Below are positions 6,585 to 11,666 of a DNA stretch of 57,037 nucleotides, one piece after another. The DNA is from a virus. Taxonomy: Duplodnaviria; Caudoviricetes. How positions within the stretch are numbered: position 1 is the stretch's first letter; each line of letters opens with the position of its first letter. The notes under the pieces were generated by a model, which was not told the DNA's origin, made no database searches, and saw only the letters and a program-made list of their open reading frames with translations. The stretch lies in IMG/VR virus record IMGVR_UViG_3300021062_000017, positions 1-57,037 of that record; one strand, written 5' to 3'. Both the position numbers and the translations under genes were made by a program.

Positions 6585-8546
6585 TCAGGCCGCGCGCTGC
6601 AGCTGCTGCTCGGCGTAGTTCGCGCGAACGAGCGCAGCCGCCACCGGCGGGCACACGCTGTTGCCGCACATGCGTACCTGCGCCGACTTCGAAAGCGCGC
6701 AGCCATCCGCGCCGCGGTCGATGGCGTAGGTGTCGGGGAAGCCCTGCGCTCGGTACAGCTCACGCGGCTGCAGCATCCGCATGCCGATGTCGGCGATGAG
6801 GTAGTCCTCGCCTGCGACCGTGACCAGCCCGAAGCGGTCCTTCGTGGTCACGGTGTGCAGCGGCTCACGCAGGTCCGGGTCCTGGTCGGTGCCGTAGTAC
6901 TTCAGCAGCAGCGCGCGGACCTCGGCGTGATGGCCGCCGGTGGTGATCGTGTGCAGCGGTGCTTCGGTGGCGCCGCCGGCATGGCCGGTGGTGTTCGTCA
7001 TCAGGTGCGACGACACGAGCGCGTGATGCTCGCCCTGGGCGCTGACGGTGTGCAGCGGCTGGTCCGGGTCGGCGCTGCTGCTGGTGCCGCGCAGCTTGGC
7101 CAGGCTCGCGGCGACGATTGCGGTGTCGCCCTTCGCGGTCACCGTGCGCGTGGGTCGATCGGCGCCGTAGGCAGGCGACTGGCCTTGTCCTTGCCGGCCG
7201 CCGACGCCGACCAGATGCGCCGCCACCACGCCGTGCTTCGCGCCGTCTGCCATCGCGGTCGGCATCGGGTGGCGCAGGTCCTGCGCGGTCCGTCCGGCCT
7301 GGGGCTCGCCGCCGTAGTGCTTGACCACGTGGGCAGCGACAAGATGGTGATGGTCCTGGGTCGTGATCGTGCTGACCGGACCGCTCAGCGGCACGCCGGG
7401 GCCTTCGTTGCCGCCGTAGTGCTTCGCCAGGAACGCGGCGACCAGCCCGTGCTTCTGTCCGTCGACCGCGGTGCCCAACGGCTTGTCCAGGCCCGGCACG
7501 CGCGGCGCCTGGCCGGGCCGCTCGCCGTAGCCGGTCTGCACCAGCGTGGGCGACACCAGCAGGTGCTCGGCCTTGCTGGTGATGGTCGACACCGGCTCTT
7601 CGACGCTGTTCGAGTACTTGCCGTTGCCACCGGTCTGGCCGATGCGGGCGATCGTGGGCGTGATGAGCGCCTTCTCGCCGCGGTTGGCGCCCGTGATGGT
7701 CCGCATCGGCTCGTCGATGTCGTTGATGCGAATGTCGCCGGGATGGGTGACGGGCGCGATGAAAGGCTTCGGCGCGTCGATGACATAGCGCTTGATGCCG
7801 TGCGCGATCCGCCGCAGCGTGGCCTCGGCCAGCGGCCGCTCGCGCTCGAAGATGGACGGGCACGGCAGCGACCAGTCGATGCAGTCGGCCGCGGTGCGCC
7901 AGGGCAGCAGGCCGCTACCCTTCGCGGGCTTCGCGGCGTGGGTCGGCTTCGGCCACACGATCGGCATGCCGTCGCGGCGCGCGACCAGGAACAGGCGCTT
8001 GCGGATCGTCGGTGCGCCGTAGTCGCACGCGCGCAGCTCGCGCCACTCGACGTGATAGCCGAGGGTGCGAAGCTGGGCCACCCAGCGCTGGAAGGTCTGA
8101 CCCTTGCGGCGCTGGCACGGCATGTTGTTCTCGTCGAGCGGGCCCCACGTCTGGAACTCTTCGACGTTCTCCAGGCAGATGACGCGCGGCCGCGCCAGCT
8201 TCGCCCACTTGATGACGACCCAGGCCAGGCCCCGGATCTTCTTCGACACCGGCTTGCCGCCCTTGGCCTTGCTGAAGTGCTTGCAGTCCGGCGAGGCCCA
8301 CAGCAATCCGACCGGCTGACCATCGGTCACCGCCAGGGGATCGACCTCGAACACGTCGGACACGAAGTGCCGGGTCTGCGGGTGGTTGGCCTGGTGCAGC
8401 GACACCGCTTCGGGGTCGTGGTTGACCGCGATGTCGACGTGCCGGCCTAGCGCCTGCTCGATGCCGGTACTCGCGCCGCCGCCGCCGGCGAAGAGGTCGA
8501 TCACGAGCTCGTGCGCGAGCGGCAGGATGAATTGGCGGGCCGTCAC
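6585..8546 (-). CDS. C5 DNA cytosine methyltransferase
   Basis: DLFAGGGG, ASPDC, LENV, RKRLF and CGNSV motifs, plus repeated P-x-x-T-I/V-T units. Confidence 0.92.
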   Translation of the reverse strand: MTARQFILPLAHELVIDLFAGGGGASTGIEQALGRHVDIAVNHDPEAVSLHQANHPQTRHFVSDVFEVDPLAVTDGQPVGLLWASPDCKHFSKAKGGKPVSKKIRGLAWVVIKWAKLARPRVICLENVEEFQTWGPLDENNMPCQRRKGQTFQRWVAQLRTLGYHVEWRELRACDYGAPTIRKRLFLVARRDGMPIVWPKPTHAAKPAKGSGLLPWRTAADCIDWSLPCPSIFERERPLAEATLRRIAHGIKRYVIDAPKPFIAPVTHPGDIRINDIDEPMRTITGANRGEKALITPTIARIGQTGGNGKYSNSVEEPVSTITSKAEHLLVSPTLVQTGYGERPGQAPRVPGLDKPLGTAVDGQKHGLVAAFLAKHYGGNEGPGVPLSGPVSTITTQDHHHLVAAHVVKHYGGEPQAGRTAQDLRHPMPTAMADGAKHGVVAAHLVGVGGRQGQGQSPAYGADRPTRTVTAKGDTAIVAASLAKLRGTSSSADPDQPLHTVSAQGEHHALVSSHLMTNTTGHAGGATEAPLHTITTGGHHAEVRALLLKYYGTDQDPDLREPLHTVTTKDRFGLVTVAGEDYLIADIGMRMLQPRELYRAQGFPDTYAIDRGADGCALSKSAQVRMCGNSVCPPVAAALVRANYAEQQLQRAA

Positions 8547-8848
8547 GCTGCCGCCCTTCCCTCGCGCTGCAACTCAGCCAGCCGGGCCTGCAGCTGCGCC
8601 GGCTCGGCCGCGGGCATTCGAGCCACCAAGTCGTAGCCGAGCCGGTGGGCCATCCACCGCAAGGGCTCTACGCTCTTGGTTGCCATCATGAGCAGCACCA
8701 TGCGGATGGCCCACTGCTCGCCCAGGCGGCGCATGAGGCGCGAGAAGTAGCCCTGCGAGACCTGGACGAATTCGGCGATCTCACGATCGTCCAATCCGCT
8801 GTCGCGCGCGGCCTCGGAGAGGACCTGCGAAAGCGTCTTCTGCTTCAT
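8543..8848 (-). CDS. HTH transcriptional regulator (CII-like)
   Basis: HTH-like segment DREIAEFVQVSQGYFSRLM. Located upstream of the replication genes. Confidence 0.6.
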   Translation of the reverse strand: MKQKTLSQVLSEAARDSGLDDREIAEFVQVSQGYFSRLMRRLGEQWAIRMVLLMMATKSVEPLRWMAHRLGYDLVARMPAAEPAQLQARLAELQREGRAAA

Positions 8849-9225
8849 GCCGCAGCCCTCCGCTGCTCCAGCGTCGCATCCGCCTGCATCTGCTCAATCA
8901 CGGTGAGCTTCGCGGCGCGCGCGCGGAACTGCGAAATCGCCGTGTTGCCGTAAGCCTGCTCGACAGCATCGATGCTCTCGAATGGCAGATTGCGGCGGCG
9001 CGGCGCGTCGTCCGGGTGGAAGTAGTCGGTGCAGTGCTGGCTCACCAGGCCGGCCTCGTCGGCCAGCATCGTGAGCTTCAGCGCACGCCGAGGCGATAAC
9101 TGCCGGCAGACGCGGCACGCCTCACGGTAGGTCCTGATCGTGCGCATGATGGCGGTCGGCACTGTGGCCGGCGCGTCGATGCGCTGCATGAGCGGGAATT
9201 CCCGCTGCAGTGGGTGTTCTTCCAA
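8845..9225 (-). CDS. CII-like/XRE phage regulator
   Basis: TTG start after GAGGAGG. HTH-like LADEAGLVSQHCTDYF and a GNTAISQF motif. Only the C-terminal part of the 454-aa track ORF is credible. Confidence 0.65.
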   Translation of the reverse strand: MEEHPLQREFPLMQRIDAPATVPTAIMRTIRTYREACRVCRQLSPRRALKLTMLADEAGLVSQHCTDYFHPDDAPRRRNLPFESIDAVEQAYGNTAISQFRARAAKLTVIEQMQADATLEQRRAAA

Positions 9226-9253
9226 GGCTGCCTCCTCGAAGAAATTCAATCGG

Positions 9254-9276
9254 CCAACCAGTTGCCCAACCAGTTG
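9254..9276 (+). promoter_or_regulatory. Direct repeat CCAACCAGTTG x2, putative CII-binding site of a P_RE-like promoter
   Basis: Exact 11-mer repeat with a 12-bp period just upstream of the cII-like start, where lambda P_RE sits. Confidence 0.45.
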
Positions 9277-9542
9277 GAACGGGGCGAAGCTGAAGGCATG
9301 AACTGCCAGACCACGCTCGCCTTTCTGCTGCGCCCGGAGACCGGCGCCCTGGCGAGCCATGGAGGCAGCCAGGACAACGCCAACGCGTCGGGCGGACGCA
9401 GCAGAAAGGGGATCGATGGAACTCAGGAATCGCGACCTGGCCTGGAGCCAGTCGAAGGTGCGCGCGCTGCTGCGCGACGCAGTTGCGGCGCTGCTGCTGG
9501 CGCAACTGGCCAGGCTGGGCGTGAGGCCACGGAAGTGAAGGG

Positions 9543-9665
9543 GGTGGAACCGGCCGGACTCGACACCGGCTGTGCGGCCCGAATGGGCCTTGCCGCGCTC
9601 TGCTGCCTGCGCATACACGGCTTGCTCTCGGCTGGCGCCGGCACGTCCTTCCGTGCTGCGGTTCC
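9543..9665 (-). ncRNA. Non-canonical tRNA-like RNA with expanded central domain
   Basis: Acceptor GGAACCG/CGGTTCC+ACC. D-like arm GCAC-GGAAGGAC-GTGC. T-like arm GCCGG-TGTCGAGT-CCGGC. About 70 nt structured insert replaces the anticodon arm. Confidence 0.65.
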
Positions 9666-9674
9666 GTTGATCGT

Positions 9675-9749
9675 TGGCACACCGTGCGGGATTCGAACCC
9701 GCGTTACCCGGGCGAAAACCGGGGTTCCTGACCACTGGAAGAACGGTGC
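9675..9749 (-). tRNA. tRNA-Glu(UUC)
   Basis: Full cloverleaf: GCACCGT/ACGGTGT, D TTCC/GGAA, anticodon arm CCCGG-TTTTCGC-CCGGG, T GCGGG-TTCGAAT-CCCGC, 3' GCCA. Confidence 0.92.
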
Positions 9750-9775
9750 ATTTGCGCGTTACTGGCGCGCCCCAG

Positions 9776-9909
9776 CTGATCGACAAGGAATTGCGAAGAC
9801 AGACCTGTCGCTCTACCGACTGAGCTACCCCTGCCATCGAATTGGGCAGGGGGGTGGACTCGAACCACCGACCAGCAGTCCGAATGTAGTCCTCGCGGCA
9901 TTCGACCCG
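9776..9909 (-). ncRNA. YrlA-like Y RNA (circularly permuted tRNA mimic)
   Basis: GTCGAATG fits the GNCGAAN0-1G Ro-binding motif. Stem GCGAGGAC/GTCTTCGC. Order is T arm GGTGG-TTCGAGT-CCACC, closed acceptor hairpin CCCCTGCC/GGCAGGGG, then D arm TA-GCTC-AGTCGGTA-GAGC. Confidence 0.82.
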
Positions 9910-9964
9910 TATACCGCTCCCGAAAGCGGCATTTCGGCAGGACGCAACTGCCTCATCAGCGGGT
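9905..9964 (-). ncRNA. Hammerhead ribozyme, type I
   Basis: ACCCG CUGAUGA GGCAG-uugcguc-CUGCC GAAA UGCCGCU-uucggg-AGCGGUA UA^CGGGU. Core is intact and all three stems pair. Cleavage is predicted between 9910 and 9909. Confidence 0.9.
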
Positions 9965-9976
9965 GTGGAGTAGAAG

Positions 9977-10004
9977 ACCCGGCCGAGCCGAAGCCCGGCC
10001 GGGT
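9977..10004 (-). other. Stable UUCG hairpin upstream of the ribozyme (possible terminator/insulator)
   Basis: ACCCGGCCGGGC-TTCG-GCTCGGCCGGGT followed by CTTCT. Confidence 0.55.
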
Positions 10005-10150
10005 TGAAAGCCTCGCGCGCGCCAAGGGAGGAATGGCGCGCCGGGTGGGTTTCCGTCACCCGCGGGGCGAGGCTGGAGACAAGGGGCGGGCGCCCTGCCC
10101 GCGGATGCACACTGGTGATTCCCCAACCACCAGCCCGCGAGAGGGCGCCC

Positions 10151-10486
10151 ATGACCATGGAAAACATCGAGAGCAGGGACGGCGAGGTGACGTTGGCCAT
10201 CTCAGGCACCTACGCGCCGCAGGAACTGCGCGAGCTGTTCCGCCGCTTGAGCCAGGCGCATGCACAGGCGTCGGGCGAGGCGATGAACGGCGAGCCGCTG
10301 TACTCGGTGGGCGGCAGTCCGCTGCTGCAGGTCGGCCACGGCGACTCGATCGTCGGCATCGGCGTGCACCTGCCGTTCTTCGGCTGGGCTCAGGCCGCCA
10401 TCGACATCCCTCGCGCGCAGAAGCTGGTCGCCGACCTGCAGGCCGCGATCATGGCCGCGGCCAGCTCCCGAGGCACGAGGCACTGA
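10151..10486 (+). CDS. Hypothetical protein, antisense to the cro operon
   Basis: MTMENIESRDGEVTLAISG...VHLPFFGW. Globular composition and good codon bias. Confidence 0.6.
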   Translation: MTMENIESRDGEVTLAISGTYAPQELRELFRRLSQAHAQASGEAMNGEPLYSVGGSPLLQVGHGDSIVGIGVHLPFFGWAQAAIDIPRAQKLVADLQAAIMAAASSRGTRH

Positions 10487-10604
10487 GCCGGCACCCTCGG
10501 CGCCGATCACGGTCCAGCTCATGGCCGGCGCCGTGGAGCGCTCGACGTAGTGCGCTGGCTCCGCGCCGGGCTCGATGGGCACCTCGGTCCAGTGCACGAT
10601 GCGG

Positions 10605-10847
10605 TCACCCATGGCCGGGCTCCTGTGCCGCAGCGGAATTAGCCCACCGGACTACCGGCTGCTCAGCCCCGATCCCGATCGACACGCTGCGCAGCAGTTG
10701 CCTCCGCCGATCACCGATCGAGGTGATGTCCCGGTCGTACAGACAGAGGGCGGACACCTCGGTGCCCAGTTCGGTCTCCAGCGCCTGCAGCCGCGCCTGG
10801 ATGTCGGCCTCGGCGCGTGCGATGGCGGCACCCACGTCATGCGACAT
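10605..10847 (-). CDS. Hypothetical protein
   Basis: 80 aa with strong RBS GAGGAGGTGA, directly downstream of cro. Confidence 0.6.
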   Translation of the reverse strand: MSHDVGAAIARAEADIQARLQALETELGTEVSALCLYDRDITSIGDRRRQLLRSVSIGIGAEQPVVRWANSAAAQEPGHG

Positions 10848-10904
10848 GGCTCACCTCCTCGCGCGCCGATTCGGCGGCCACGCCGGGCCCGATGCGGCCG
10901 GCCA

Positions 10905-11129
10905 TCACGCGGCCCTCGCGGGGGCGGGTTCGGCGACGACTCCGGTCGGCGCAGGGGGCGGCGCCAGAAAGAGGTCTGGGCGCTCCAGCTTCACCTTGGC
11001 CGGGATGCCTCGAGTGGTCCAGTTGTGGACCCGCTGCGTGCCGCCGTCCTTCTCGTACCCGAGCAAATCAGCAACTTTCGCGGGGCCGCCCAAGCGCTCG
11101 ATCAGCGCCCTGTCGTCGTTGATGTCCAT
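10905..11129 (-). CDS. cro: Cro-like repressor
   Basis: LIERLGGPAKVADLLG...RVHNWTTRGIP. Divergent from cI. Confidence 0.85.
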   Translation of the reverse strand: MDINDDRALIERLGGPAKVADLLGYEKDGGTQRVHNWTTRGIPAKVKLERPDLFLAPPPAPTGVVAEPAPARAA

Positions 11130-11137
11130 GGCTTCGC

Positions 11138-11201
11138 ATACTAAACGACGCGTTTAGGAATTGCAAACATGGCGTTTGGGCCCTACTCCACATTTCGTTT
11201 A
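11138..11201. promoter_or_regulatory. O_R operators and P_R promoter
   Basis: CTAAAC-N5-GTTTAG (11141-57), CAAAC-N5-GTTTG (11164-78) and a degenerate third site (11188-201). Minus-strand TTGCAA-N17-TAGTAT lies just before the cro ATG. Confidence 0.8.
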
Positions 11202-11666
11202 ATGGAGGATCCGGTGTGGCATAGGCTTGACCAGGAGCTCGCGTCGCGTCGCGAGCGCCACCTCGTGCCCGGTTCTTGGGCTGAACTGGCTCGTGCGCTC
11301 GACACCAGCGAGCAACGGATCAACAACTGGAAGCGCCGCGGCGTGCCGCCCAAACAGCACGCGGCCGTCGCCGCAGCACTGGGGTGGTCAGTGGATCGCC
11401 TGATCGGCCTCGACGAACCCCAGCGGGCGCTCGCCACACCAAATGGCAATATTCCACTCACGGAAGTGGAAAAAGTCGCAGCGGCTTATGCGAACCTCAG
11501 TCCTGCTGAGCGGCGTCGCTTTCTCCATCTCCTTGCGGCAGCAAGAGACGACGCGCCAATGCTCGGCATCGACTGGGAGACGCTTTGGACTACACGGAGC
11601 AAGGAGCAGTTGATCGACGAGACGGCGCCGAGACGGGTGGGCAACAAGAAGCGGAGACTCGGGTGA
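11202..11666 (+). CDS. cI: CI-like immunity repressor (HTH, no S24 peptidase seen)
   Basis: HTH SWAELARALDTSEQRINNWKRRGVP. Divergent from cro between the operators. Confidence 0.8.
   Translation: MEDPVWHRLDQELASRRERHLVPGSWAELARALDTSEQRINNWKRRGVPPKQHAAVAAALGWSVDRLIGLDEPQRALATPNGNIPLTEVEKVAAAYANLSPAERRRFLHLLAAARDDAPMLGIDWETLWTTRSKEQLIDETAPRRVGNKKRRLG

Follow-up and report, generated by a model that had tools for sequence, protein, structure and literature searches.

The window analysed here, the complete 57,037-base IMG/VR virus record IMGVR_UViG_3300021062_000017 (CheckV completeness estimate 100%), belongs to a temperate, lambda-like soil phage whose minus strand carries a cluster of structured small RNAs: a type I hammerhead ribozyme, a YrlA-class Y RNA, a tRNA-Glu and a fourth, unclassified RNA whose arms follow the order of a cloverleaf. 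A preliminary description, made from the sequence alone, had placed four such RNAs head to tail on the minus strand, and this arrangement is borne out. In our judgement it is probable, and well short of certain, that a module of about 300 nt within this minus-strand cluster has been gained or lost as a unit and that the hammerhead of the module sets the 5′ end of the Y RNA.

Hammerhead ribozyme

The portion of the ribozyme that lies 5′ of its cleavage site occupies positions 9910–9966 (minus strand) and was recognized by reading of the sequence, by a descriptor and by folding. Stem I consists of 5 bp between ACCCG (9964–9960) and CGGGU (9909–9905), and the core CUGAUGA begins at 9959. Stem II (GGCAG/CUGCC, 5 bp) is capped by a 7-nt loop, UUGCGUC, and is followed by GAAA, while stem III comprises 9 bp, is closed by the A15.1–U16.1 pair and carries a 4-nt loop. 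The nucleotide at position 17 is A9910, and the predicted cleavage site falls between 9910 and 9909. All invariant elements of the hammerhead core are present (CUGANGA, GAAA, A15.1–U16.1 and a nucleotide other than G at position 17), and the topology is that of type I, in which loops close stems II and III while stem I is left open.

The descriptor matches this site and no other in the window, on both strands, and gives no match in 300 dinucleotide shuffles even with looser stem lengths. When some of its stem and loop limits are loosened, it finds one match, a real hammerhead, in 1.87 Mb from 299 further loci, the majority of them obtained with patterns containing CTGATGAG and CGAAA. The minimum free energy (MFE) structures computed with RNAfold for 9966–9903, 9972–9898 and 10010–9898 are exactly the hammerhead three-way junction, with or without the upstream hairpin. 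The hammerhead first proposed is thus present by its full core, its three stems, the descriptor and the MFE fold, its Rfam scores being sub-threshold or absent (see below). A type III assignment was tried and rejected: the alignment to the Rfam Hammerhead_3 model is topologically wrong and leaves out the GUC triplet, and the sequence reads as type I.

YrlA-class Y RNA

The YrlA-class Y RNA spans 9774–9909 (minus strand), its predicted 5′ end, C9909, being the one that hammerhead cleavage would leave. Rfam RF02553 (YrlA) matches 9774–9908 over the full model (1–114), with 57.7 bits against a gathering threshold of 69 and an E value of 2.2e-12. In a permissive Rfam scan of 9400–10150, YrlA, Hammerhead_3 and anti-hemB were added to the tRNA-Glu. 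The Rfam and tRNA check that had been suggested with the preliminary description therefore gave a divided answer, in which tRNA-Glu scores above gathering and YrlA is matched at full length, whereas hammerhead and YrlA both remain below gathering.

Hallmarks of the class are found in both the terminal stem and the interior of the molecule. The 5′ strand contains GUCGAAUG at 9906–9899, which conforms to GNCGAAN0-1G, given as the Ro60-binding motif by Chen et al. (2014, RNA 20:1715, PMC4201824), and an internal tRNA-like domain is represented by GGUGGUUCGAGUCCACC and GUAGCUCAGUCGGUAGAGC, which align to the T arm and D arm of the YrlA model. RNAalifold, applied to an alignment of 11 sequences (the Y RNA of the window, 9 from viral contigs and 1 from a Sphingomonas genome), predicted 20 pairs, with compensatory change in 12. 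The Y RNA of the window retains the terminal stem, the T arm, the middle helix and the D arm of this alignment, and pairs of the terminal stem covary.

The cleavage site lies 1 nt ahead of the start of the YrlA model, at the foot of the covarying terminal stem. The YrlA match starts at 9908, within the 3′ strand of stem I (9909–9905), so that hammerhead and Y RNA 5′ end overlap as had been noticed originally. With the cut between 9910 and 9909, and with CGGGU at 9909–9905 belonging to stem I, the 3′ strand of stem I is the Y RNA's own 5′ end; given this overlap, a ribozyme-made 5′-OH on the Y RNA would be the natural reading.

No match to TROVE (Ro60/rsr) was found at E ≤ 1 in the whole 57-kb record, in which this Y RNA accordingly has no rsr neighbour, and no RtcB was found in the record. 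TROVE was found in none of 81 sampled Burkholderiales genomes either, which may not represent the order of the host, as the host has not been established.

A related contig without the module

Among the sequencing runs listed as containing this DNA there was no RNA run. Four DNA runs were aligned to 9300–10300, of which three (X5, X8 and X12) covered just short tRNA-like or low-complexity parts of the cassette. In the soil metagenome run X3, a 22,493-nt contig (record 9) matches 9427–9670 and 9997–10300 with 3 differences each, both aligned flanks (244 and 304 nt) being 99% identical to the window. The contig skips the 326 nt at 9671–9996 (minus strand), which hold the hammerhead, the YrlA RNA and the tRNA-Glu. 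In their place it carries 29 other letters that rebuild the same hairpin top with compensating changes, plus a similar tail, and its hairpin, which resembles that of the small RNA (sRNA) candidate upstream of the hammerhead, is followed almost directly by an identical fourth RNA. When the hairpin tails are aligned, the extra segment of the window begins 7 nt before stem I and ends 4 nt past the CCA of tRNA-Glu.

Because the X3 contig is without exactly the hammerhead, YrlA and tRNA-Glu, these three form one gained-or-lost module, whose GC content (0.62) is lower than that of the whole genome (about 0.68). From the same comparison, the fourth RNA reads as belonging to the phage backbone and not to the indel module. 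The single cassette of four RNAs originally envisaged is therefore not borne out, the X3 contig having lost or never gained the first three while keeping the fourth. As separate observations, 9300–9445 is about 98% identical to short contigs of two runs labelled as single organisms (X8 and X12), and the X3 relative diverges from the window left of 9427; the region is therefore mosaic.

tRNA-Glu and the fourth RNA

The tRNA-Glu (anticodon UUC) lies at 9675–9749 on the minus strand and has its CCA encoded. It is the only RNA found by ARAGORN and by Rfam at gathering level (56.7 bits against 29), and has an unusual G1–U72 wobble atop the acceptor stem. The spacer of 9 nt that separates it from the fourth RNA is exactly the one first given, while the spacer between YrlA and tRNA-Glu measures 24 nt and not approximately 26.

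The fourth RNA (9543–9665, minus strand) is a structured RNA identified from its fold, which has an energy of −64.6 kcal/mol (z −3.6) and an MFE structure accounting for 0.62 of the ensemble. Its 5′ part shows a 7-bp acceptor-like stem and a D-like arm of 5 bp whose loop contains GG. Next come two hairpins, which make up an insert of 52 nt, and a 5-bp arm with a tetraloop at the place of the anticodon arm. The 3′ part consists of 5 unpaired nt, a 5-bp T-like arm with an 8-nt loop that is without UUC, the 3′ strand of the terminal stem, an A and CC. With a tetraloop in place of the anticodon loop the molecule has no anticodon, and we assign it, with moderate confidence and from its predicted fold, as an anticodon-less tRNA-like RNA.

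ARAGORN made no call on the fourth RNA at default settings and gave dubious calls only at lowered thresholds. In a 143-nt search Rfam returned no family, the tRNA model had no match at E ≤ 10, and the best score, 8.4 bits, was to the T arm and acceptor end of permuted tmRNA. A model built from the single sequence retrieved 3 true tRNAs among 6 non-self matches, at only 17–18 bits (E 0.11–0.2), and a scan of viral contigs with a pattern of the fourth RNA gave 0 matches. The label 'tRNA-like' of the preliminary description fits the stable predicted fold in cloverleaf order and finds no backing in an ARAGORN call or an Rfam family. An assignment as a true tRNA was rejected, as no tRNA model recognizes the molecule and the arm at the anticodon position ends in a 4-nt loop.

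Upstream element and neighbouring genes

Directly upstream of the hammerhead lies an anti-hemB-like sRNA candidate (9969–10044, minus strand), recognized by Rfam RF02837 and by its fold. The match extends over the full model (1–81) with 32.7 bits against a gathering threshold of 49.5 (E 1e-5 in a 751-nt search), a score that does not establish membership of the family. The candidate forms a hairpin with a CU-rich UCCUCCCU loop and then an 11-bp GC-rich terminator-like hairpin (10004–9978) with a weak U tail; its fold has a z value of −5.6, and 0 of 200 shuffles were as stable. The X3 contig carries compensatory differences at the pairs that form the top of this hairpin. According to Weinberg et al. 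(2007, PMC1950547), the anti-hemB motif occurs in beta-proteobacteria and has a terminator at its end.

Farther out, the minus strand encodes a Cro-like protein at 10905–11129 and, with weak likeness, a cII-like protein at 8543–8848, and the plus strand a repressor-like helix-turn-helix protein at 11169–11666. Lambda-type large terminase, portal, capsid, integrase and RecT are also encoded in the record. The RNA cluster is flanked by two plus-strand open reading frames (ORFs), both opposite to it in orientation: one of 40 amino acids (aa) at 9416–9538, with a gene-like GC content at third codon positions (GC3) of 0.83, and one of 111 aa at 10151–10486, with a gene-like GC3 of 0.91 and, by eye, the ribosome-binding-site-like GAGAGGG in front. 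No family match was found for either. As gene-like ORFs on the plus strand flank the cluster, no uninterrupted minus-strand operon leads from cro through the RNAs to cII. The 'early lytic operon' of the preliminary description is thus right in placing the cluster between cro-like and cII-like genes, and is contradicted by the plus-strand ORFs on its flanks and the terminator-like hairpin that precedes it. Expression from P_R, claimed in the same description, is not borne out, since a plus-strand gene and the sRNA-like element with its terminator hairpin separate cro from the cassette.

No close relative of the phage was found among 50,697 phage records, and blastn with the cassette gave no match in them. 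Its closest terminase, 43% identical, is that of a Burkholderia phage; this terminase and the anti-hemB-like match are only hints of a beta-proteobacterial or Burkholderia-type host. Relatives of the neighbouring 114-aa and 111-aa proteins were not found in the viral contigs searched, and 20 loci related through cro contain no tRNA and show no similarity to the cassette.

Hammerheads and YrlA RNAs at other loci

A scan of viral contigs for hammerheads with a tRNA D arm downstream returned one true case in 7 matches. At this locus (L178:12183–12342, minus strand), on a 167-kb phage contig, a type I hammerhead stands directly 5′ of a tRNA-His(GUG), the GGUGG of the tRNA forms the 3′ strand of stem I and the predicted cut falls exactly before G−1. 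Rfam reports this hammerhead through Hammerhead_3 alone, at 32.2 bits and with the wrong topology. Taken together, the window and L178 suggest at least two occurrences of a hammerhead placed so as to generate, precisely, the 5′ terminus of a tRNA-shaped RNA. In metagenome contigs, 0 of the matches listed (at least 118) passed the descriptor, and the 88 new loci from a degenerate D-arm scan of viral contigs contained 4 hammerheads, not one of them beside a tRNA; judged from these scans, a hammerhead at the 5′ end of such an RNA is rare in the sequences covered.

Type I hammerheads were also located upstream of ORF-like sequence in viral contigs (L315:4800–4855, L315:5263–5327, L331 and L348). 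Hammerhead_1 scores these clear type I hammerheads at 11.7–24 bits against a gathering threshold of 34, except for the near-identical one of L331, which it misses; in all, four clear phage type I hammerheads received 24, 24, 12 and 11.7 bits from this model, with two others going undetected. The Hammerhead_1 model is a poor judge of phage type I hammerheads here.

With a YrlA-specific pattern, 10 viral loci were found, 7 of which are really YrlA-like (L166, L167, L169, L171, L172, L173 and L174). They contain 11 YrlA matches of 35.5–64.9 bits, all under the gathering threshold of 69. The CTGATGA hammerhead core occurs within 110 nt upstream of YrlA in 0 of the 7, and a Hammerhead_3 search of four YrlA-bearing jumbo-phage records gave no match. 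tRNA genes are present in 4 of the 7 loci and a tmRNA in one (L174), and in L167 the tRNA 3′ end lies 1 nt ahead of the YrlA start. A TROVE-like ORF occurs in 5 of these 7 other YrlA-bearing viral records, with 3 exceeding the Pfam cut-off. We also observed that the 7 viral loci are tandem arrays of YrlA-like and shorter Y-like RNAs, and that a Sphingomonas genome (G004:C3:281450–282163; L143/L146/L150) holds four adjacent YrlA-model matches on one strand, with 70.6, 39.8, 29.8 and 26.5 bits.

Proposed mechanism

Transcription would enter the module from upstream, either by read-through of the weak terminator of the anti-hemB-like sRNA or from the cro operon. The hammerhead could fold once about 60 nt have emerged, and nucleotides 1–5 of the Y RNA would complete its stem I on the 3′ side. 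Hammerheads leave a 5′-OH and a 2′,3′-cyclic phosphate, and from this established chemistry of the class, cleavage between A9910 and C9909 is predicted to leave the cyclic phosphate on the upstream RNA and the 5′-OH on the first nucleotide of the Y RNA. The freed 5′ strand may then pair with the 3′ strand of the Y RNA in a Ro60-type stem, while RNase P would release tRNA-Glu and probably the fourth tRNA-like RNA. In other phage arrays the Y RNA 5′ end can be defined by an upstream tRNA; here, where the Y RNA heads the series, the ribozyme would play this part, regardless of where the module is inserted. What had been called a protein-free, self-processing module is, on this scheme, self-processing at one end, the Y RNA 5′ end, while all other ends would depend on enzymes of the host such as RNase P. 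The likeliest role of the Y RNA, of tRNA-Glu and of the tRNA mimic would be to bind host proteins that recognize tRNA or Ro60-type RNAs, namely tRNA- or Ro60-binding proteins.

Counted in favour of this scheme are the core, stems and fold of the hammerhead, the position of its cut site, the YrlA loci of other viruses and the non-coding composition of the region; in addition, the boundaries of the module hug the hammerhead and the tRNA CCA plus 4 nt, and L178 has the same exact-end geometry at G−1 of tRNA-His. A number of results weigh against it. An A at position 17 is cleavable by hammerheads, yet is not the best nucleotide there. Stem I has only 5 bp, and inspection of the surroundings of loop II by eye revealed no loop–loop or pseudoknot contact between stems I and II, of the sort that fast cleavage requires; the ribozyme may therefore act slowly. 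Rfam Hammerhead_3 scores 9926–9986 at 21.4 bits against a gathering threshold of 48.5 (E 0.073), and Hammerhead_1 gives no match to this hammerhead at E ≤ 10. In the full uncleaved precursor the MFE fold is an alternative one, in which the ribozyme core pairs with the 3′ tail of the Y RNA (GAUCAGC, within 9966–9770), and such a fold could restrict cleavage to a short period during transcription. A consensus scan for promoters and terminators found no promoter and nothing useful.

To these are added the results of sequence searches. Exact-pattern scans for a hammerhead next to YrlA gave just 2 chance matches in viral contigs, none with YrlA hallmarks among the matches listed (at least 120) in genome contigs, and 0 matches in metagenome contigs. 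The search of phage sequences for the same arrangement, which the preliminary description had called for, accordingly brought no second hammerhead–YrlA locus, and the hammerhead therefore has no support from covariation. In 401 Burkholderiales genomes, blastn with the cassette gave only tRNA-arm matches of at most 72 nt, in 153 genomes.

Alternative explanations

The hammerhead might instead be an ordinary phage transcript-processing element that ends or destabilizes the upstream RNA, its position at the Y RNA being a by-product of tight packing. Hammerheads have indeed been reported flanking prophage genes (Perreault 2011, PMC3088659), the two type I hammerheads of L315 and those of L331 and L348 precede ORF-like sequence and not tRNAs, and cleavage necessarily also creates a 3′ end on the upstream RNA. 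Chance packing accounts less readily for a stem I made from the Y RNA's own first 5 nt with the cut at the base of the terminal stem, for a hammerhead that moves with YrlA and tRNA-Glu as one indel, or for the repetition of the exact-end geometry at tRNA-His in L178, and we consider this explanation unlikely; the two are not exclusive, as a transcript-processing element may also make the 5′ end of the Y RNA. Unlikely, too, is the function put forward in the preliminary description, by which the cassette gives tRNA decoys or replacements, engages host Rsr/RtcB repair or counters a tRNA-cutting defence. The phage has no TROVE or RtcB gene, in contrast to the TROVE-like ORFs of most other YrlA-bearing viral records, and no defence or nuclease context was seen; the lack of TROVE in the sampled Burkholderiales is weak evidence, the host not being established. 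These points have to be set against the putative Ro60-binding motif of the Y RNA, the ends of hammerhead cleavage, which by established ribozyme chemistry are of RtcB type, the report that RtcR responds to tRNA halves with cyclic-phosphate ends, and the G1–U72 pair of tRNA-Glu together with the anticodon-less fourth RNA, both of which could act as mimics.

It is less likely still that the hammerhead is an inactive relic and the cluster a functionless, decaying remnant of a larger tRNA/Y RNA array gained by recombination. Such decay would fit the sole instance of a hammerhead–YrlA pair, the sub-threshold Rfam scores of hammerhead, YrlA and sRNA, the lower GC content of the module, which suggests a foreign origin, and a relative, the X3 contig, that lives without it. 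A relic would hardly be expected to keep all invariant core positions and three stems of the hammerhead, a Y RNA that is full-length to its model with covarying stems kept, and a tRNA-Glu of 56.7 bits with an encoded CCA. Hardly any credence is left for translation of the region within a long ORF, at 8845–10209 (minus strand) or 9214–11157 (plus strand), both of which are open across the cassette. Codon-position GC is flat across 9543–10000, at 0.59–0.67 in all six frames, whereas the flanking genes have a GC3 of 0.80–0.91 and a second-position GC (GC2) of 0.45–0.52. The long minus-strand frame climbs in GC3 only from about 9220 downward, and long spurious ORFs are common at 68% GC. By codon-position GC the region of the RNA cluster reads as non-coding, and it shows no sign of translation as one of the long overlapping ORFs, which the preliminary description had named as a possible refutation.

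Significance

The reading in which the hammerhead sets the Y RNA 5′ end can be extended to a broader and more tentative proposal, which we find possible and less than probable: phage type I hammerheads may act as portable devices that give tRNA-shaped RNAs their exact 5′ ends without RNase P, with the block described here a self-insulating 'RNA moron', its 5′-OH deliberate and L178 a second member of the class. If true, such an RNA moron could be dropped behind any transcript and still give a correct Y RNA, and the 5′-OH could shield the RNA from 5′-end-dependent decay, or couple it to end-healing of the RtcB or kinase type. To our knowledge, the making of Y RNA ends is largely unknown, and a ribozyme that sets the 5′ end of a Y RNA would be, if confirmed, the first natural example. 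The two soil phage variants, with and without the module between 99% identical flanks, constitute a ready-made natural experiment. The record further indicates that YrlA can be carried without an accompanying Ro60 gene, and one may ask what purpose a Y RNA serves in a host possibly without Ro60. As the scores that the Rfam hammerhead models give to phage type I hammerheads with a long stem III are too low, similar cases may hide in existing data.

Comparison with known systems

The upstream element is like anti-hemB (Weinberg et al. 2007, PMC1950547; RF02837) in that the full model is matched by a hairpin followed by a terminator hairpin, and unlike it in its sub-gathering score and its location in a phage. 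Bacterial YrlA RNAs as described by Chen et al. (2014, PMC4201824; RF02553) share with the Y RNA of the window a terminal stem with GNCGAAN0-1G and internal T and D arms, and in that description, too, neighbouring small RNAs are processed from one precursor. The phage RNA differs from them in that the phage has no rsr anywhere, in scoring under the Rfam gathering threshold, and in a 5′ end that is predicted to be set by a ribozyme.

With the prophage hammerheads reported by Perreault et al. (2011, PMC3088659) the ribozyme shares its catalytic core, its three-stem junction, the phage context and the cutting of a transcript into units. Those hammerheads flank protein genes, whereas in the window the RNA predicted to be released on the 3′ side is non-coding and structured and contributes its own initial nucleotides to stem I. 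The design is identical to that of engineered hammerhead–RNA–HDV cassettes (PMC10159003), in which the hammerhead's 5′ arm can pair with the initial 5–6 nt of the RNA and yields an exact 5′-OH; these are laboratory constructs, while the phage version is natural and without a 3′ ribozyme. In the literature found on YrlA together with a hammerhead, that same report (PMC10159003) uses the hammerhead as an engineered tool, and another paper concerns a fish mitogenome. No description of a natural hammerhead at the 5′ end of a Y RNA or a tRNA was found in the literature, the supplementary lists of Chen 2014 and Perreault 2011 being places that may hold cases; with that proviso, the preliminary statement that no system of this architecture had been described has stood up to the search.

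A natural parallel is provided by theta (HDV-like) ribozymes beside phage tRNAs (Kienbeck et al. 2024, PMC10879173), the main text of which does not contain the word 'hammerhead'. There, as in the scheme proposed here, the cut site lies at an end of the mature RNA and a small self-cleaving ribozyme takes the place of a host processing enzyme; the theta ribozymes belong to another ribozyme class, act on 3′ trailers and are reported from gut phages. If the hammerhead does set the 5′ end of the Y RNA, it would be the 5′-end counterpart of the theta ribozymes that trim the 3′ ends of phage tRNAs.

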